Positions 4,178 to 22,092 of a stretch of 25,326 bases of DNA are shown here, piece by piece. The notes beneath the pieces are model-generated. The model was not told where the DNA came from. It saw only the letters and a list, made by a program, of their open reading frames with translations, and searched no databases. Made by a program: the position numbers and the translations under genes. Source of the DNA: Candidatus Omnitrophota bacterium (GTDB taxonomy: Bacteria > Omnitrophota > Gorgyraeia > JABMRG01 > JAFGKX01); NCBI GenBank assembly GCA_020354945.1, contig CP070655.1, positions 927,022 through 952,347 on the forward strand. Direction: 5' to 3'. Each line of letters opens with the position of its first letter. Within the stretch, counting starts at the first letter, position 1.

Positions 4178-4246
4178 GGGGGCACCCTGCAGCACGAAAA
4201 GTTTTGCGGTATATGTTGCTCACTTTTCGTGCTGCAGGGCGTCCTC
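4178..4246. repeat. 69-bp palindromic element, family II, copy A; overlaps the DUF523 3' end
   Basis: Arms gggggcaccctgcagcacgaaaagt / acttttcgtgctgcagggcgtcctc (22 of 25 complementary). Its reverse complement matches 15425-15493 at 50/69 with no gaps (hand count). Confidence 0.9.
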
Positions 4247-4645
4247 ACCCATAACTTTAATACCGTTTTTCTTCAACAACGCTGTCGCAATACCATCGCC
4301 TTTAATAGTCTTACGCGAGAAACTTCCATCATATATTTTGCCGCACCCGCAGGCAGCGCTCCTTTGTTTAAAAATCGCCTCTTTTATATCAAGCAATCTT
4401 GCTAATTTTAAAACCTGGCTTGCTCCAATTTTAAAGTTTTTGGTAACGTCTTTTCCTGATTTTGTAATAACCTTTGCGCCTTTTCCTTCTGAAGGTTTTC
4501 TTGGGGTTGGCAAACCGCCTAATTGTTCTGGGCAGACAGGGATTAATGTCTCTTTTTTAGATAAGGCAATAACTTCTTTATCGGGCTTGCTTTTACCGTC
4601 GTATCTACATCTTATTCCCAGCAAACATGCGCTGCATAGTTTCAT
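4220..4645 (-). CDS. DUF523 / 2-thiouracil desulfurase-family protein
   Basis: SACLLG, CRYDG, PVCPEQLGGLPTPR, RSAACG, GDG motifs. Confidence 0.9.
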   Translation of the reverse strand: MKLCSACLLGIRCRYDGKSKPDKEVIALSKKETLIPVCPEQLGGLPTPRKPSEGKGAKVITKSGKDVTKNFKIGASQVLKLARLLDIKEAIFKQRSAACGCGKIYDGSFSRKTIKGDGIATALLKKNGIKVMGEDALQHEK

Positions 4646-8193: not shown

Positions 8194-8386
8194 AGGGACG
8201 TTTTTTGATGGCATAGTGAATGCCATAGCCATCAAGGAACCTTCCGGAATCAAGCTCCACGATGGCGGTTTCTAAAATTGTTTGGGAACCTGCCCTATTT
8301 TTGTTCGGAAACCTGCCCCCTTCAGTGGAAGACATGGGGACACTTCTGCAAACAAAACCATAAACGGTTCTATATGTTTCGAAGAG
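8194..8386. repeat. Composite cluster of palindromic elements
   Basis: Hairpin gggacgttttttgatggc...gccatcaaggaaccttcc (8195-8245); family I copy 8268-8320 (45/53 identical to 13577-13629); decayed ggggacacttc...tgtttcgaag (8336 onward). Confidence 0.75.
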
Positions 8387-11704: not shown

Positions 11705-13570
11705 CTATTTTATGCCAATCCGTTTTCTTTCTGCTAAAAGGATAATATCTCTTAGTTCTTCTGCATTGCGGGCATCGAGCCACCTTTTATCAAAATTTTT
11801 ACCCTGGGCAATCTGGGCAATTGCAGCCAATGCGCGCAGGTGAAAATTACGTTCATCACGAGAACCTACCAGGACAAAAATGGTATGAACCGGTTGGGGT
11901 GTATCAGGAAAAATAATTCCCTTTTTGCATCGTACTATTAGAATGTCAAATTTAGCAACCCCTTTGATTATAATATGAGGTATGGCCAGCCCAGGGGCAA
12001 TCACAGTGCTGGTCTGTTTTTCCCTTTCTATAAAAAGATCGAACAGGGTCTTCTTGTCTATCTCTAATCGCCTGGATAGTATATTTGCTACTATCTTAAA
12101 CATACTTTCAGCCGTAGGCATTGCAGCGGTAGGCGGCTCATAGTCTAAAATTTCGCATTTTTTTATAAGGTGGTCAAATCTATCTTCAACAATCTCATCC
12201 CGTTCAATGATAATCCCTCTTAACTCATCCGGTAAAGTAGCGTCAACCAGCTCTCTGGCAGTAATTCTTTCAATAACATGAACCATGGCTGCCTGGCGGT
12301 TTACTCTTTTCCTGGCATAAAGCAGATACCAGGCCAGGCCGCAACTGATGAAAATCGCAGTTATAGAAAGAGGAACCCTTCCCATTTCAAAAATAAGAAA
12401 CCCATATCCTAAAATTGCCAATATTTGGACCCAGGGATAGAGCGGTGAACGAAATTTTGGCCGATAACCTTGAATTTTACTTTCTCGCATAATGATAAGG
12501 GATAGATTTACAAACATAAACAGCAGAATCATAAGAGTAGATGCAGTCTTGACCAAATTCTCTAAACTTAAGAATAAGATAACCACAATCATAAAAGCAG
12601 TAGTAAAGATTATAGAAAAATGGGGAGTTTTAGACCTGGCATTTATTCTCTCAAAAATTTTAGGCAAGAGGGAATCCCGGCTCATTGCCAAAGAATTCCT
12701 GGAGGCGGTCAGGATACCGGCGTTGGCTGTTGAAATGAAGGCCAAAAGGGCAGCGATGGCCAGTATTATACCCCCTGGATTCCCCATGAAAGTGCTGGCG
12801 CCAAGTGAAAGCGGAACAAGAGAATTTGAGAACTGTGCAGAATCGAGCAATCCAACTGTTACGAAAACAACCGCAGCATAAAGGATAATCACAACACAAA
12901 AGGCAAGAAACATTCCCAGCGGTATATTGCGTCCAGGGTTTTTTACCTCTTCTGCAACACAGCTTATTTTTGTTAAACCTCCAAATGAAACAAAGACAAG
13001 ACCTGCAGTAGCAAAAACCGAAACCCACCCAAAAGGCACAAATGGAGTAAATCTGTTGGGTTGAATAAATAGAAAACCTCGAAGGATATATAGCAGGAGT
13101 ATACCAATAAGTGAAAGGACCAATGCTATCTGGAACCTCCCTGTTTGTTTAACGCCGATGATATTAACAAACATAAAGAAAAGGCAGCACCCTACGGCAA
13201 TAAGTTTTATTTGTGCCTCTGTAATGCCGGGGTTAATTAACGTAGCAAATATACCAATTCCGACAAGGGCAAAGGCACTTTTAAAACTCAAAGAAAACCA
13301 GCTGGCGAGTCCTCCTATGGAACCTATGGGAGCCCCCATACTTCTCTCAATAAAAAAATAGACGCCCCCTGCTTTAGGCATAGCGGTAGTCAGTTCCGCC
13401 TGGGCAAGCATGGCCGGTAAGATTAGAATGCCGGCCAGAATATATGAGATGATCATAGCAGGCCCGGTCTTTGCATATGCCAGAGCAGGCAAAATAAATA
13501 TCCCAGAACTAATCATTGCTCCGGAGGCTATGCAAAATATATCCAGAAGTCCTAATTCTTTTTTTAACAT
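11705..13570 (-). CDS. APC-family amino acid permease fused to a C-terminal PTS EIIA(Ntr/Fru)-like domain
   Basis: GAMISSGIF, AELTTAMPKAGG, AEEVKNP.RNIP, about 12 TMs; C-terminal RE...ST....LAIPH and FHLRALAAIA. Confidence 0.92.
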   Translation of the reverse strand: MLKKELGLLDIFCIASGAMISSGIFILPALAYAKTGPAMIISYILAGILILPAMLAQAELTTAMPKAGGVYFFIERSMGAPIGSIGGLASWFSLSFKSAFALVGIGIFATLINPGITEAQIKLIAVGCCLFFMFVNIIGVKQTGRFQIALVLSLIGILLLYILRGFLFIQPNRFTPFVPFGWVSVFATAGLVFVSFGGLTKISCVAEEVKNPGRNIPLGMFLAFCVVIILYAAVVFVTVGLLDSAQFSNSLVPLSLGASTFMGNPGGIILAIAALLAFISTANAGILTASRNSLAMSRDSLLPKIFERINARSKTPHFSIIFTTAFMIVVILFLSLENLVKTASTLMILLFMFVNLSLIIMRESKIQGYRPKFRSPLYPWVQILAILGYGFLIFEMGRVPLSITAIFISCGLAWYLLYARKRVNRQAAMVHVIERITARELVDATLPDELRGIIIERDEIVEDRFDHLIKKCEILDYEPPTAAMPTAESMFKIVANILSRRLEIDKKTLFDLFIEREKQTSTVIAPGLAIPHIIIKGVAKFDILIVRCKKGIIFPDTPQPVHTIFVLVGSRDERNFHLRALAAIAQIAQGKNFDKRWLDARNAEELRDIILLAERKRIGIK

Positions 13571-13629
13571 AGGGACGTTTCCAAAGTTGTTCGGGAACCT
13601 GCCCTATTTTCAATCGGGAACCTGTCCCC
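13571..13629. repeat. Palindromic element family I with a duplicated right arm
   Basis: agggacgtttccaaagttgttcgggaacctgccct + attttcaatcgggaacctgtcccc; abuts ATG 13570. Confidence 0.85.
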
Positions 13630-13666
13630 TACTTATAAACTTTTGGAACTTTTTTAACTGTTTCTA

Positions 13667-14766: not shown

Positions 14767-15528
14767 CTATTCCTGTGCCTTCCCGGTCATAGGCACAAAC
14801 CTGACCGGTATTACGCTTTTAGATTTTACCTTACCTCTCTTCTTTTCAAGTAATTTTAACTCTTGCCAGACATCACCTACCGGAATAACCATTCTTCCGC
14901 CTTCTGCTAATTGTTCAATGAGAGGCTCAGGAACTTCATCCGGCGCGCAGGTTACAATTATACCGTCGAATGGCGCATATTCCTCCCAGCCGATAAATCC
15001 ATCGCCGCATTTAACGGTAATATTCTTATAACCTAAATTTTTTAGCAGTTTATCCGCCCTTGTAGTTAGAGGCTCCAATATTTCTATAGTGTAAACCTCT
15101 TTAGACAATTCAGCCAATACAGCTGCCTGATATCCGGAGCCGGTGCCTATTTCCAGTACTCTTTCATCTCCGTCCAATTTTAATAGTTCGGTCATTAGCG
15201 CAACTATATATGGCTGTGAAATTGTCTGCCCTTCTCCGATGGGCAAAGGCCGGTCAGTATAAGCAAAGGCCCTTAGATATATAGGCACAAATTTATGCCT
15301 TTCTACCTTAAGCATTGCGTCCAACACTCTTTCATCACTGACGCCCCTGGCAACTATTTGAGTCTCAACCATGCGCTTTCTTGCAAGTGCATATCTTTCC
15401 TCTGTGGGTTCTTCAGCGTAGACCAGGGACACCCTGCAGCAGAAAAAGGGAGCATACTCCATAGAAAACCTTTTTGTGCAGCAGAGTGTCCCCAGTATAA
15501 TTAAAACAAAAATGACTTTTATCTTCAT
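14767..15528 (-). CDS. pcm: Protein-L-isoaspartate O-methyltransferase with a signal-like N-terminus interrupted by a repeat
   Basis: V.RHKFVP, PLPIGEGQTISQPYIVA, VLEIGTGSGYQAA, APFDGIIVT, VRFVPM. Confidence 0.95.
   Translation of the reverse strand: MKIKVIFVLIILGTLCCTKRFSMEYAPFFCCRVSLVYAEEPTEERYALARKRMVETQIVARGVSDERVLDAMLKVERHKFVPIYLRAFAYTDRPLPIGEGQTISQPYIVALMTELLKLDGDERVLEIGTGSGYQAAVLAELSKEVYTIEILEPLTTRADKLLKNLGYKNITVKCGDGFIGWEEYAPFDGIIVTCAPDEVPEPLIEQLAEGGRMVIPVGDVWQELKLLEKKRGKVKSKSVIPVRFVPMTGKAQE
15425..15493. repeat. 69-bp palindromic element, family II, copy B; in frame inside pcm
   Basis: Arms gggacaccctgcagcagaaaaagg / cctttttgtgcagcagagtgtccc (21 of 24 complementary); encodes GTLCCTKRFSMEYAPFFCCRVSL; CCAG direct repeat 69 nt apart at the ends. 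Confidence 0.9.
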
Positions 15529-17834
15529 GCAATCGCTCCCTCCCGACGGGTAAACATCAAAATAATAAAACTGGACATCTTTAACACAACCATTAACATG
15601 CAGCTGTTAAATAACCCTAAGATTGGCAGCAGGGCTACGCCTCCTAACATCCCTCCTATCCATCCGCCTAAAAGGTCGCCGGCGTAAAGAAGACCTGCTG
15701 CCTGACCTATGTTAGGGGATGTCTTTAGATATATTTTATTCCCTAACGGAAATTCCGCTCCTACCAGAAATCCTGATATAAAGGAAAGCGCCAAAAATGT
15801 TATTTGACGGAAGGGGACATTTAATCTGAGCAACGTAAACAGTAATATAAATGAAAAAAAGATAAGGGCTATCTCCAATCTTATAAAGCTCTTGAGGTCG
15901 TCTTTTATCTTTTCCAGGCTTAAGGTCATTGCCAGGCCCCCTAAAGTAAGGCCGACCATAAAAGCAGTAATTAGCAATCCCATCCAGTAATATACAAAGC
16001 CATATAATATCTGGAAAGCAAATATTAAAATTAGGTCAAAAAGCATTCCGCAAAATCCTGTGGCTATTATAGCATATGGTACAGCATAGCGTCCGACTCC
16101 CTTATTCTTGAAGCTAATAATTAAATATAAAATGACAAAAATAATAACAGGTATAATGAAAAACTTCAGGCTTATCTTTTCGAATAATTTAAATATTCCT
16201 TGAGTGTGCGGCGAAAAGAGCGCGTTCCAGAAAGATAAGCTGTAAAATACCCCTATCGGAGAGAAGTCTTTATTTGCTTTTCTTTTAGCCTCTTTGATAG
16301 ATTCTAAGTACCATTTTAGCCTACCCGGAGCCAATTTATATTCAATGTAATTCTGAGTTATAAGGGATGCCCCAAAACCCCGCTGTTTAAACCTCCGGGT
16401 AAGTAAAGCAGGATTGATAGCGCTTAAGTTTCCCGAAGCAGAACTTAGAAGGATATTGGTATCACCGGGAATAGTTCTTATATAAGGAAAATTGATTTTT
16501 AGGGCATCATGGATACAGGCATTGAGTTTTCTTAATTCGTAGCTTAAGTAACTCAAAGAACCCGGCAGATTAATAGCTAATATACCATTTTCATTTAGCC
16601 GATTTTTAGCCATTGAGAAGAATTCTTCCGTAAAAAGCCTGTTTGTCTGCAAATCCTGCGGATTGGGTATCCCGATCATTATGACATCATATCTATTTTT
16701 GGTATCTTTAAGAAAGTATCTGCCATCAACATAATGGATTTTAACCCGGGGGTCGGATAGTTCTTTCCGGGTAATGGGAGCAGAAAATCTCTTAGCCGCT
16801 TTTATGATTAAAGGGTCAAGTTCGCAATAGTCTATTTCTTCCACCGGATGTTTTAATACCTCGTTTATCAGGCCTCCGGCGCCGCCGCTTATTATCAATA
16901 TAGTTTTTGGAGAAGGATGAGAAAGTAAAGGAAGGTGGGCGAATTCCTCAACAAAGAAAATATCCGGAGTAGGGCTGCTGAACATCGGGATGCCATTGCT
17001 AAAAAAGGTATATTGCTTGCCCCTTTCTGTAACAGCTACATTACCATAGACGGAATTGCGATAGTAAATAACTTTATGCTGAGGCCATTGCTTTTTAAGG
17101 GAATCCCGGTGAATATTGTCTGCTTTTAAGATAAGGAAGATATTTAAAAATAAAAATATACAAGTTATATATCCTAATAATTTAGTTAATAATAATCTAT
17201 CAGGTTTATAGGAAGCTCCCAGCAGAATTAGGCATATCAAAATATTTAACAGGCTTATGCCGAAGGTTATTTGAAAGGAATTAAAATATCTGATAAGTAG
17301 ATAAGTAAAGACAATCCCGCCTATCAATGTGCCAAAGGCTTCATAAACATAAACCTTCCCTATTACTCCGCCGCCAAGGGAAGGCTTGCCTTTGATGCCT
17401 TCTACGGATACGTCGCTGCCTTGAAATGACGAATATATCCTGCAACCGAAAGTAAAAAGCGCCCCATGAGGAATGGATATAGGCAAAAGCAATATAAAGG
17501 AAGAGCAAAATATGGGGACGATACCCAGGCCTTCTCCGGGCGTCAACCCGAAAATAATATTTAATACCCGGGTTAAATAAACTACTAAAGGCAGAGAAAG
17601 ACAAAAGATAAGTTGCAGGATTATAAATGTCTCGATTTTTCGTTTTATATGCTCAATTCTTTTGCCAACGAAAAAAGCACCGGCTGCTTCAAGGATTAGC
17701 CAGTTGGCTAAAATAATACCTATCGAGAGTTCATTGCCATAAAACTTTATTAGAAGCTCTCGCAACAGCAATACCTGAGCTACAATGCCGCTGAATCCGA
17801 CTATTATTAAGGCAGCTATAAATCTTTTTTTCAT
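15525..17834 (-). CDS. Fused membrane (MFS-like) / spermidine-synthase-like protein
   Basis: N- and C-terminal TM bundles (QVLLLREL..FYGNELS; LYAGDLLG) flanking a SAM-fold domain (EEFAHLPLLSHP.P, GGAGG, ELDP, DGRYF). Confidence 0.85.
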   Translation of the reverse strand: MKKRFIAALIIVGFSGIVAQVLLLRELLIKFYGNELSIGIILANWLILEAAGAFFVGKRIEHIKRKIETFIILQLIFCLSLPLVVYLTRVLNIIFGLTPGEGLGIVPIFCSSFILLLPISIPHGALFTFGCRIYSSFQGSDVSVEGIKGKPSLGGGVIGKVYVYEAFGTLIGGIVFTYLLIRYFNSFQITFGISLLNILICLILLGASYKPDRLLLTKLLGYITCIFLFLNIFLILKADNIHRDSLKKQWPQHKVIYYRNSVYGNVAVTERGKQYTFFSNGIPMFSSPTPDIFFVEEFAHLPLLSHPSPKTILIISGGAGGLINEVLKHPVEEIDYCELDPLIIKAAKRFSAPITRKELSDPRVKIHYVDGRYFLKDTKNRYDVIMIGIPNPQDLQTNRLFTEEFFSMAKNRLNENGILAINLPGSLSYLSYELRKLNACIHDALKINFPYIRTIPGDTNILLSSASGNLSAINPALLTRRFKQRGFGASLITQNYIEYKLAPGRLKWYLESIKEAKRKANKDFSPIGVFYSLSFWNALFSPHTQGIFKLFEKISLKFFIIPVIIFVILYLIISFKNKGVGRYAVPYAIIATGFCGMLFDLILIFAFQILYGFVYYWMGLLITAFMVGLTLGGLAMTLSLEKIKDDLKSFIRLEIALIFFSFILLFTLLRLNVPFRQITFLALSFISGFLVGAEFPLGNKIYLKTSPNIGQAAGLLYAGDLLGGWIGGMLGGVALLPILGLFNSCMLMVVLKMSSFIILMFTRREGAIA

Positions 17835-20736: not shown

Positions 20737-20742
20737 ATTAAC

Positions 20743-20897
20743 GGGGACGCTTTCCAAGGTGCCACTTTCCAGCACGGAAACTTTCAAGTTTTCCGACTTT
20801 TATATTAAACTTTTGATTTTCTATATAAACTACTATAGAAATTTTACCAAAACTTGCCAATTTTGTGTTGGAGACTGGCACCTTGGAAAACGTCCCT
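20743..20897. mobile_element. 155-bp MITE-like element with about 50-bp imperfect inverted arms
   Basis: Left ggggacgctttccaaggtgccactttccagcacggaaactttcaagtttt versus reverse complement of right agggacgttttccaaggtgccagtctccaacacaaaattggcaagtttt (first 22 nt 20/22); AT-rich core with an inner hairpin tttctata/tatagaaa. Confidence 0.75.
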
Positions 20898-20898
20898 A

Positions 20899-22092
20899 TT
20901 ACATATATTTCCTGTAAATCCCGAGGATGTTTTTGGCAAGGGTATCTTTGGTGTAATGAGAGGTTACAATCTGCCTGCCGGTGCTGCCGAGCCTTTTTCT
21001 TAATCGCTCGTTTGTCAATAGAAGAATTATTCTTGAGGCCAATACTTCAAAATCTTTTATCGGTATGACAAAGCCGGTTATGCCATCCTGGATTATCTCA
21101 GGCATGCCCCCGGACATAGTAACAATCATCGGTTTCTCTGAAGCCATAGCCTCCAGCATTGTCAGGCCAAAAGGTTCACCAACGCTGGAAGGATACATAC
21201 AGACTTCTGAAAGGGCATAAATCTGCCGAATCTGCTCCAGAGTAAATGTATCTATCAACACGCGTTTTCTTAGATTAAAAAATTTTATAAGGTTTACCAT
21301 ATAAGCAATGTCTTTTTCCTGTGTTGCGCCCCAGTCAATAATATTTTTTGTTCCGGCTAAAACCAAAATTACATCTGGAAATTGATCTTTTACAATATTA
21401 AGGGCCTTTATGCTGGTATCGCAACCTTTGGCAAGCCCCATTCTTGCCGGATGAAATAATATACGCCTGTTTTTAAGCATAGGGTAATCTTTAAGTATTC
21501 TCTTGGTTTCTATGCCCGGCCTATATTTTTTGGTATCCATGCCATGATGTACCACTGTTATTTTTCTATCATCGCAGCCGGAACCGATAAGCTCCTTTTT
21601 TATATAGTGGCTTACTGCAATTATATGAGCCCAGTTAATATCTCTGATTAAGTCAAGATAAAGTATATCATCCCAGACGTTGTGCGCTGTTAATATTATC
21701 GGAATCCCTTTTCTTTTTGCTACATCCTGCAAAGTATAGGCATGCAATTTGCTAAAATAATGCATATTATGGGCATGTATTACATCGGCCCTGGAGCAGT
21801 CAATGAACTTAGTAAAGAGCCTTTTTATCTCTTCTTCCAGGCCTTCAAAGCCTCTTTTAAATAGCCAGTTTAAATCCATTAAAGGTGAACGAATGATATG
21901 GACACGGTTCTGCGTATAATCGGTTTTGCAACCTTCAACGCTGCTGGTAAGCAGCCACACATTATGGCCTTTGGATGCTAATGTGGGCAAAAGGATGGCT
22001 AGATGGGTTTCCACTCCGCCGATTATAGGAGGAAATCCCCAGTGAAGTTGGGCTATATTCAGTTTCTTTTTAAATTTGCGTTTCTTTTTCAT
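20899..22092 (-). CDS. Glycosyltransferase family 4
   Basis: FPPIIGGVE, DVIHAHN, IIAVS, EPFGLTMLEAMA, GGMPEII. Confidence 0.93.
   Translation of the reverse strand: MKKKRKFKKKLNIAQLHWGFPPIIGGVETHLAILLPTLASKGHNVWLLTSSVEGCKTDYTQNRVHIIRSPLMDLNWLFKRGFEGLEEEIKRLFTKFIDCSRADVIHAHNMHYFSKLHAYTLQDVAKRKGIPIILTAHNVWDDILYLDLIRDINWAHIIAVSHYIKKELIGSGCDDRKITVVHHGMDTKKYRPGIETKRILKDYPMLKNRRILFHPARMGLAKGCDTSIKALNIVKDQFPDVILVLAGTKNIIDWGATQEKDIAYMVNLIKFFNLRKRVLIDTFTLEQIRQIYALSEVCMYPSSVGEPFGLTMLEAMASEKPMIVTMSGGMPEIIQDGITGFVIPIKDFEVLASRIILLLTNERLRKRLGSTGRQIVTSHYTKDTLAKNILGIYRKYM

Follow-up and report, generated by a model that had tools for sequence, protein, structure and literature searches.

The window analyzed here is a stretch of 25,326 nucleotides from the genome of a Candidatus Omnitrophota bacterium (GenBank assembly GCA_020354945.1, contig CP070655.1, positions 927,022 to 952,347 of the forward strand; G000:C1:927022-952347 in the present genome set). 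It contains a 69-nt palindrome, copy A, within pcm, the gene for a protein-L-isoaspartate O-methyltransferase, and this palindrome is very probably one member of a small family of mobile DNA palindromes, located in frame inside the signal peptide of Pcm. Copy A belongs to a family with other copies in the same genome, it keeps the pcm frame open, pcm alleles with and without it occur among close relatives, and the sites occupied by the family have turned over recently between congeneric genomes.

Copy A consists of two 24-nt arms and a 21-nt loop. Folded as the pcm-sense RNA it reaches −40.2 kcal/mol (z −6.87, 0 of 200 shuffles being as stable), and the plus strand folds at −34.1 kcal/mol (z −6.13). 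In the pcm frame, the element begins at the third base of codon 12, ends at the second of codon 35, and spells the 23-residue peptide GTLCCTKRFSMEYAPFFCCRVSL, so that the open reading frame (ORF) translates as MKIKVIFVLIIL-GTLCCTKRFSMEYAPFFCCRVSL-VYAEEP..., with VYAEEPTEERYALARKRMVETQ... after the element. The first-pass annotation of the window had described this hairpin with its 24-nt arms and in-frame peptide, and the sequence and the reading of the ORF agree with that description. The Pfam family PCMT matches residues 51-251 of the ORF (E 1.6e-66), and a public record holds an identical 253-aa protein with the same start. Copy A lies between the hydrophobic core and the VYA/EE motif of the signal peptide, at which cleavage is presumed to occur. 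The element would be translated as 23 extra residues, the first five of which, GTLCC, would lengthen the hydrophobic core; mature Pcm would be unchanged if the signal peptide is still cleaved, but membrane-anchored if it is not. In the window protein, the core of MKIKVIFVLIIL together with the element-derived GTLCCT makes a 14-residue uncharged run with a mean Kyte-Doolittle value of 2.81; the uncharged hydrophobic run after MKIK, insert included, is 14 residues long in the window protein and 19 in the homologues P0006 and P0125, which makes it plausible that the targeting portion of the signal peptide is preserved. The LGTLCC of the insert, considered as a lipobox, is presumably a misfit to the usual pattern. 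It may be added that members of the pcm clade of the window have signal peptides or lipoprotein-like N termini, which is odd for a repair enzyme dependent on S-adenosylmethionine.

The survey of pcm relatives covered 31 related genomes, 21 of them with a pcm match. Eleven other loci were read; none has the 23-residue insert, and several have a hydrophobic N terminus ending in ...YAQDD or similar. The window protein clusters at 90% identity with P0006, P0125, P0126, and P0127, while P0007 is a cluster of its own. Among these six close alleles, whose mature domains are 91-95% identical, three are filled (window, P0006, P0125) and three are empty (P0007, P0126, P0127); the more distant outgroups P0009, P0011, and P0013 (81-86%) lack the insert and have a plain signal peptide. 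The three filled alleles, each of a different source, share 93-94% identity across the mature domain and have unbroken ORFs. In a tree, the six close alleles form one supported clade. A word-based protein search with residues 1-45 of the window protein recovered only the P0006 cluster, with no other protein of 139-443 aa carrying the insert peptide, and scans of genome and metagenome contigs for an insert-bearing pcm locus gave best matches of only 62-73% identity. At the DNA level, an empty allele is provided by a contig of a relative from a different study (run X4), which joins 15422 to 15505 with 34 other letters replacing 82. Hand-translated in the pcm frame, this joint reads MKIKVIFV-LVLIFSIITLYL-YAEE, which corresponds to a P0127-type empty allele differing at a single residue and having 16 codons fewer than the window allele; joints of low likeness stem from other organisms, and this one is read here as the allele of a relative. 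The empty orthologues that were sought are thus at hand, as proteins with a plain signal peptide (P0007, P0126, P0127, P0009, P0011, P0013) and as DNA in the X4 contig.

The window derives from a scaffolded assembly, G000, of 1,137,816 bases (38.9% G+C, 12,900 N in 129 gaps of 100 N, 89% complete), and a misjoining of repeat read-through into pcm during assembly or binning would mimic an insertion. In G001, a genome of the same genus, contig C29 breaks off ∼20 nt short of the pcm start codon, a behavior typical of assemblies at repeats, and the orthologue of this clade was not found elsewhere in G001, whose pcm site is therefore not assessable. An artefact of this kind is nonetheless scarcely credible, because an independent 588-nt contig of run X1, possibly the source sample, covers 15118-15705 without gaps and with one mismatch, thus spanning the insert and showing that copy A in pcm does not arise from scaffolding, and P0006 and P0125, from other sources, have the same insert in the same place. 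Read depth at 15427-15481 is ∼150 in runs X2 and X4 and ∼10 alongside, as expected for a repeat.

Whether the insert lies in coding sequence depends on the position of the pcm start. If pcm began downstream at Met54 (MVETQ), the element would occupy a 5′ untranslated spacer and be an RNA or DNA hairpin only. Met54 is a conserved methionine (position 7 of the Pfam profile), the family is mostly extragenic, and in PMC3733652 many repetitive extragenic palindromic (REP) sequences at predicted N termini are described as non-coding. This reading is nevertheless very unlikely, since all close orthologues have a signal peptide ahead of Met54 and the MKIK start is found in six of the seven close alleles with a full signal peptide. 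In the three filled alleles, moreover, the sequences to either side of the insert vary in length, yet all three remain in frame, which indicates that the stretch from MKIK is under coding selection, and the start at 15528 has a Shine-Dalgarno (SD)-like sequence, GGGAGGGAG, and an ATGA overlap with the upstream ORF, as compared with only a weak AGAAAG ahead of Met54. The start at 15528 rather than at MVETQ, which is also the public gene call, is accordingly retained, as the first-pass annotation had assumed.

A second pcm paralogue (G000 518508-519137, 52% identity) raises the possibility that the insertion disabled the window gene, or that this gene is drifting as a pseudogene while the paralogue does the work, and the hydrophobic core ahead of the insert is only 8 residues long in the window. 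However, the ORF is intact over its 253 codons with a full PCMT match, the insert-bearing alleles of the three sources are unbroken, and with GTLCCT included the uncharged runs have the lengths given above, so that loss of function is very improbable.

Features of the window associated with the two family copies, and N-terminal sequences of the homologous pcm alleles
Feature	Position in window	Strand	Details
Copy A of hairpin repeat, 69 nt	15425..15493	−	Arms 15425-15448 and 15470-15493, loop 15449-15469
pcm (protein-L-isoaspartate O-methyltransferase)	14767..15528	−	253 codons, ORF includes insert
Signal-peptide charged start and hydrophobic core, codons 1-12, MKIKVIFVLIIL	15493..15528	−	MKIK conserved in P0006, P0007, P0009, P0011, P0125, P0127
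VYA, codons 36-38, presumed signal-peptidase motif ahead of EEP	15415..15423	−	Orthologues: ...LYA/EE, ...IYA/EE, ...CYA/EE
SD-like GGGAGGGAG, 7 nt upstream of pcm ATG	15536..15544	−	Sequence read directly
Upstream 769-aa ORF, spermidine-synthase-like domain	15525..17834	−	TGA stop overlaps pcm ATG (ATGA)
Copy B, 69 nt	4178..4246	−	Opposite orientation to A; between two minus-strand genes
2-Thiouracil-desulfurase-like gene	4220..4645	−	Last 8 codons (EDALQHEK) and stop inside copy B
pcm allele P0006, filled			MKIKRILFFITIGLFIIL-GTLCCTKRFSLEYAPFLCCRVSP-SGASPVYAEE
pcm allele P0125, filled			...MKIKRILFFIIIGLFIIL-GTLCCTKRFSMEYAPFLCCRVSP-SGTVYAEE
pcm allele P0126, empty			MKTRVILISVISFFIILNYITRLYAEE
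pcm allele P0127, empty			MKIKVIFVLVLIFSIITSYLYAEE
pcm allele P0007, empty			MKIKWLLLFTLIFCINITQIYAEE

The family was delineated with a hidden Markov model (HMM) built from the first BLAST matches and with a covariance model (R1) that was run over 61 related genomes. The HMM detects seven full copies in G000 (E 2.9e-22 to 1.8e-17), together with a half copy beside one of them and a few fragments, and the covariance-model scores of the G000 copies are 72.7-96.1 bits. Further copies, on whose existence the first-pass annotation had made its proposal depend, were found by the covariance model in relatives: seven full copies in G001, two in G003 (same family), and one in G014 (same order); altogether 7 of the 61 genomes have a match at E ≤ 0.01, the matches outside these four genomes being weak. 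The nearest named homologues of pcm and of lspA, a second host gene discussed below, are labelled Candidatus Omnitrophota or Omnitrophica. The conserved part of each copy is the arm, TGGGGACACCCTGCAGCACGAAAAG and its inverse (24-nt arm T-GGGGACACCCTGCAGCACGAAAAG), and the loop is variable in sequence and in length (18-21 nt); each copy combines two conserved units of ∼25 nt, inverted relative to each other across a variable spacer, and 25 pairs are predicted in the family alignments. The termini are TGGGGAC...GTCCCCA, with the consensus end GGGGACAC, in place of which one end of copies A and c601 has AGGGACAC and AGGGACAG. One subtype comprises copy A and the lspA copy, distinguished by CAGCAG[A/G]AAAAGG in the arm and by GGAGC at the start of the loop; in this subtype, the gene-ending TGA of copies B, c371, and c983 reads GGA.

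The copies in G000 are 66, 67, 68, 68, 69, 69, and 69 nt long, so that codon length is not intrinsic to the family. The first-pass annotation had seen a mobile, codon-length palindrome that adds protein sequence and had suggested testing whether intragenic copies favor lengths divisible by three: the mobility and the in-frame position stand, but not the codon length, since, although 9 of the 13 copies measured have lengths of 66 or 69 nt, others have 67 or 68 nt. It should be recognized in reading these counts, and the 65 open frames among the 84 of 14 copies, that the copies are non-independent. A scan of the window at the Rfam gathering thresholds gave no matches. Three exact 18-mer matches in viral contigs were attributed to chance, as the covariance model identified a full element in none of the three. 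G·U wobble pairs were also considered as a mark of a functional RNA strand and dismissed, because in six of the seven G000 copies the transcribed orientation is the one with C-A mismatches rather than wobble pairs.

Mobility of the family is indicated by the comparison of G000 with G001. At none of the six assessable G000 sites does G001 have a family element, and the family has therefore been mobile recently. The purE/sua5, htrA/recX, thiE, and lspA sites are empty in G001, whereas the copy B site has a different hairpin there and the c371 site is occupied by 186 nt that include two other hairpins. At insertion sites the ends of genes have been rebuilt, as in the start of recX, which is MKMTDEENFDKALSYA in G000 and MIESHSYLKSLSYA in G001. 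No consistent direct repeats that would represent a target-site duplication were found at the flanks of 13 copies or at the compared empty sites. CCAG occurs at 15423-15426 and 15492-15495, as the first-pass annotation had recorded, but it is rejected as a target-site duplication because one CCAG overlaps the TGGGG terminus of the element and the other a mutated CCCCA terminus; the doubt already expressed there, that the motif overlaps the ends of the element itself, was well placed. Some copies share CCCGGA on the left or TAC/AGT on the right, and the repeat unit may be a few bases longer than the palindrome.

The distribution of the copies bears on another explanation, in which the hairpins are regulatory structures selected by the host, such as transcript stabilizers, terminators, or protein-binding sites, that are spread by recombination, the copies in coding sequence being accidental. 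Eleven of the 14 copies in G000 and G001 have one orientation relative to the flanking transcript (one-sided binomial ∼0.03), copies lie between co-directional genes near 3′ ends, as do the REPs of PMC3733652, the two G000 sites mentioned above carry other hairpins in G001, and unequal identities on the two sides of the lspA copy (92% and 99%) hint at recombination. This explanation is decidedly unlikely, given that the sites are wholly different in the two congeneric genomes, the loop is free to vary, and some copies are within coding sequence, where a terminator would be harmful; regulation and mobility, however, are not mutually exclusive.

The membership of copy A in a mobile family that can enter genes is paralleled by a second coding insertion, a 66-nt copy in frame in lspA (G000 601032-601097; Peptidase_A8, E 8.3e-26). 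The 5′ part of the G000 gene is lost in a 100-N gap, and the visible protein reads ...LITILFLALAL-RDSLQQEKGAWKLSLFVQQSVPT-KKGKIFVYSISMILAGALGNLVDRL..., whereas the orthologue in G001 is empty (...LITIIFIIYTLLSRKLKGKIFVYSIS...). G000 and G001 DNA is 92% identical over a 108-nt upstream flank and 99% identical over a 174-nt downstream flank; these flanks enclose 84 nt in the former and 27 nt in the latter. The lower identity upstream than downstream of the insert, G001 being represented by contig C10, may reflect a recombination mosaic. A search of G000 found a single copy of lspA. In alignments to solved LspA chains, the insert, ∼22 extra residues, is in a loop ahead of the GNLxDR helix: relative to chain 6ryo_A it lies between segments aligned to residues 70-103 and 118-177, with residues 38-70 of the query opposite residues 104-117. 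The element would thereby add its residues to a loop between two membrane helices, and this loop is taken to face the cytoplasm.

The eight nearest database homologues of LspA show the site in several states. The insert of G000 recurs in P0128 (94%), P0129 carries a related one, GDTLQHKKGAWKLSLFVQQSVPF, at the site, P0134 has a 44-residue composite that resembles one element nested within a second, a different and short hairpin-like insert occupies the same loop in P0135, and P0130-P0133 are empty. The C-terminal part of the G000 protein is 98-100% identical to the empty P0130-P0133 but only 76% identical to P0129 and P0134. The presence of an insert does not track the similarity of the flanking gene, suggesting recombination, loss, or more than one insertion into the same permissive loop. 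Hairpin-derived inserts are thus found in this loop in at least three diverged lineages (G000 with P0128, P0129, and the composite P0134). In pcm the insert shows stronger conservation than the surrounding signal peptide, and both host proteins belong to the export pathway, one having a signal peptide and the other being the lipoprotein signal peptidase. The repeated inserts in the LspA loop and the good conservation of the pcm insert would fit a non-random landing, through site-directed Y1 insertion at DNA structures or through adoption of the Cys-rich peptide as a working module in proteins that are exported or reside in the membrane, although this idea is unlikely.

The remaining copies, with neighbors named by Pfam, do not interrupt genes. 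Besides the two internal in-frame copies (pcm and lspA), two of the seven in G000 are purely intergenic, one between the genes for aminoimidazole ribonucleotide carboxylase and a Sua5/YrdC-family protein and one between the gene for an HtrA-like protease and recX, and three (B, c371, and c983) supply the stop codon of the upstream gene, all in the same frame. At c371, the gene for a phosphoenolpyruvate-utilizing enzyme ends ...GDTQQHEK and stop, and at c983, the thiamine-phosphate synthase gene ends ...GDTLQHEK and stop. Six-frame translations of the G001 copies indicate that none of seven is internal, one supplies a stop, and six are intergenic; in G003, one of two supplies a stop. Most copies are located in very short intergenic spacers, where several reach the 3′ end of the upstream gene and give it a stop codon. 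Two copies entered genes and survived there; for both, the net change is a multiple of three, the frame is free of stops, and the site is structurally permissive.

Copy B is the second hairpin of the pair originally noticed in the window, and its length and opposite orientation were correctly given in the first-pass annotation: it forms an inverted repeat with copy A that is 75% complementary over 68 nt, and it folds at −48.5 kcal/mol (z −8.2). The peptide GAPCSTKSFAVYVAHFSCCRASS ascribed to it there has to be withdrawn, as it is merely one of six frames and no gene product, the desulfurase-like gene ending within copy B in another way (table); copy B is consequently not a second coding insertion, the real one being that in lspA, outside the window. 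Copy B and the desulfurase-like gene are both missing at the orthologous site in G001 (contig C40), where a different hairpin, TTGGTGCCAGGCACG...CGTGCCTGGCACCAA, is present, and copy B marks the edge of a difference in gene content between G000 and G001. Downstream of c371, on the minus strand at about 371430-371560 of G000:C1, a nucleotidyltransferase-like ORF (MMKALILAAGYATRLWPL...) has an in-frame TAA after 41 codons with the frame open beyond it; the TAA could be a real break, an error, or the end of a short ORF.

A candidate for the enzyme that moves the family is a transposase of the Y1 type. G000 has one Y1_Tnp gene (PF01797), a 209-codon ORF at 1123640-1124269 with an HxH motif (NHIHIL) and Tyr-containing motifs, and its best NCBIfam model is REP_Tyr_transpos, the REP-associated tyrosine transposase (RAYT). 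The gene is flanked by 35-nt inverted repeats that start ATTGGGGAC and have a GGGGAC terminus, and in G000:C1:1123480-1124269 these repeats encode the C terminus of the transposase (...LESGTLESVPNNS, then stop) and the end of an upstream 392-aa ORF (...GDVLQGATPQHKKVTK, then stop). Y1 genes are present in 54 of the 61 related genomes, and inverted repeats, belonging to several sequence types, flank five of the six examined in G000, G001, and G003. By eye, the inner part of the G000 flank is ∼84% like the family arm over 25 nt; the right flank of the Y1 gene on contig C4 of G001 contains an exact 12-mer, TGGGGACACCCT (arm HMM, E 1.4). The family end GGGGACAC fits the GGGGWSAS motif that PMC3733652 gives for repeats flanking RAYT-like genes. 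By analogy with what has been proposed for REPINs, doublets of REP sequences, the family may have been moved as a single-stranded hairpin by a RAYT-like HUH/Y1 transposase, a suggestion given slightly less than an even chance.

Two other kinds of repeat in the window are of types that flank Y1 genes. An inverted pair with 37-nt arms 89 nt apart, at 20739-20901 of the window, is of the same type as the repeats flanking the Y1 gene of G000, and its inner part at 20759-20781 is 70% like the family arm. A second repeat family, GGGACGTTTCCAAA..GTTCGGGAACCTGYCC, is located at 2023-2058, 8260-8321, and 13569-13630 of the window, often doubled, in spacers between minus-strand genes; its 12-mer TAGGGACGTTTC occurs 18 times in G000, and repeats of this type flank Y1 genes in G001 (contigs C36 and C6), while no such Y1 gene was found in G000. 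Other over-represented 12-mers of G000 are ACTGATAACTGA (43 copies), CTGCCGGCAGGC (34), and ACTGAAAACTGA (31).

The family could instead be a classical miniature inverted-repeat transposable element (MITE), moved by a DDE transposase that recognizes the terminal inverted repeats rather than by a Y1 enzyme. In its entirety the element forms a pair of inverted repeats, and insertion sequence elements are often absent from metagenome-assembled genomes. Y1 transposition is not known to make a target-site duplication, whereas Correia/NEMIS, ERIC, and similar MITEs have target-site duplications and DDE-type parents. The lack of a consistent duplication at the 13 measured copies and the compared empty sites, and the failure to find DDE_Tnp_1, rve, or TnpB in G000 at 89% completeness, make a classical MITE improbable.

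Several points weigh against the picture of copy A as a translated member of a family mobilized by a Y1 enzyme. With respect to the mobilizer, the REP_Tyr_transpos score of the G000 gene (70.2 bits) is below the 80-bit cut-off; among 35 Y1 loci tested, out of >180 matches in the 61 genomes, the covariance model finds the family beside none and the best E value of the arm HMM is 0.47. The likeness of the G000 flank to the family amounts to only 7.1 bits (E 0.12 in 20 kb), a score reached by 2 of 300 random 900-nt controls, and missing transposases prove little in a genome that is 89% complete with 129 scaffold gaps. The number of copies, seven, is low, unlike that in classical REPIN populations. 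With respect to the insertions, the bases adjoining every insert have diverged from G001, although the farther flanks are 88-99% identical, and with such unclean junctions a simple cut-and-paste event is not demonstrated. Relative to the empty alleles the net change is +48 nt in pcm, where 21 nt of target are gone, and +57 nt in lspA, where 9 nt are gone, these values reflecting target lost or replaced beside the insert. The insert-bearing lspA alleles are not monophyletic on their flanks, and the inner order of the pcm clade being unresolved, one gain is indistinguishable from several. With respect to function, selection on the peptide cannot be separated from selection on the hairpin in pcm, the second paralogue implies that the window copy could be dispensable, and expression of the insert, like its fate at signal-peptide cleavage and the mechanism of transposition, is inferred from sequence.

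The first-pass annotation had compared the behavior of the element with that of Rickettsia palindromic elements (RPEs), and this comparison holds, in that dispersed palindromes include copies in frame in pcm and lspA, the orthologues of which lack the insert. RPEs, as described in PMC10969869, are a palindromic family in which in-frame copies in unrelated housekeeping genes add a peptide segment and other copies are intergenic, nearly half of them (three of ten families) being in ORFs. The present family resembles them in having in-frame copies in unrelated housekeeping genes and others between genes, but RPEs are ∼150 bp long and belong to α-proteobacteria, whereas the copies here are 66-69 nt and in an unrelated lineage; also, internal copies are only two of seven in G000 and none of seven in G001. 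Di Nocera et al. (2013, PMC3733652) describe intragenic REP dimers coding for 20-30 residues, stop codons provided by REP ends to flanking ORFs, and RAYT-like genes flanked by GGGGWSAS inverted repeats that form moderately abundant families (“TIRtrons/TIRYT”). The intragenic copies, the supply of stop codons, and the GGGGACAC end are shared with these; in contrast, the family has no GTAG tag, CGTC is present in some arms only (copy B and a copy on contig C16 of G001), and among the 35 loci no Y1 gene is flanked by exactly this repeat.

The REPIN, as defined by Bertels and Rainey (2011, PMC3116915), is an inverted doublet that forms a long hairpin with a variable spacer. The present elements are likewise inverted doublets of ∼25-nt conserved units, ∼70 nt in all, with a variable spacer, and RAYT-like genes with related flanking repeats are present. 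However, REPINs number hundreds of copies and are almost wholly extragenic, compared with seven per genome here, two of them inside genes in G000, and the family has neither GTAG at its ends nor an identified cognate RAYT. Correia/NEMIS, ERIC, and other MITEs are similarly small, non-autonomous inverted-repeat elements for which in-frame fusion with host ORFs is possible (PMC10969869), but the family has no target-site duplication and no DDE parent was found in G000. The family therefore behaves like RPEs and the catalogued intragenic REP dimers and is neither of the GTAG REP/REPIN class nor a classical MITE. No description of palindromic or repetitive extragenic repeats in Omnitrophota or Omnitrophica was found in the literature, the supplementary lists of PMC3733652 not being covered; copy A and its relatives represent a known kind of intragenic repeat, of which REPs and RPEs have already been described, in a new lineage, probably the Omnitrophota.

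The REP, RPE, and RAYT world is thereby extended to a candidate phylum for which metagenomes are almost the sole source of knowledge, and selfish hairpin DNA is seen to be tolerated within two housekeeping genes of a very small genome densely packed with genes. For annotation, it is relevant that such repeats create or extend gene ends, can mislead start-codon calls, and break assemblies. The natural filled and empty alleles of pcm and lspA make the effect of the insert directly testable, and with it the questions of whether a signal peptide bearing 23 extra residues still targets and is cleaved and whether the only detected copy of LspA works with ∼22 extra residues in a loop.

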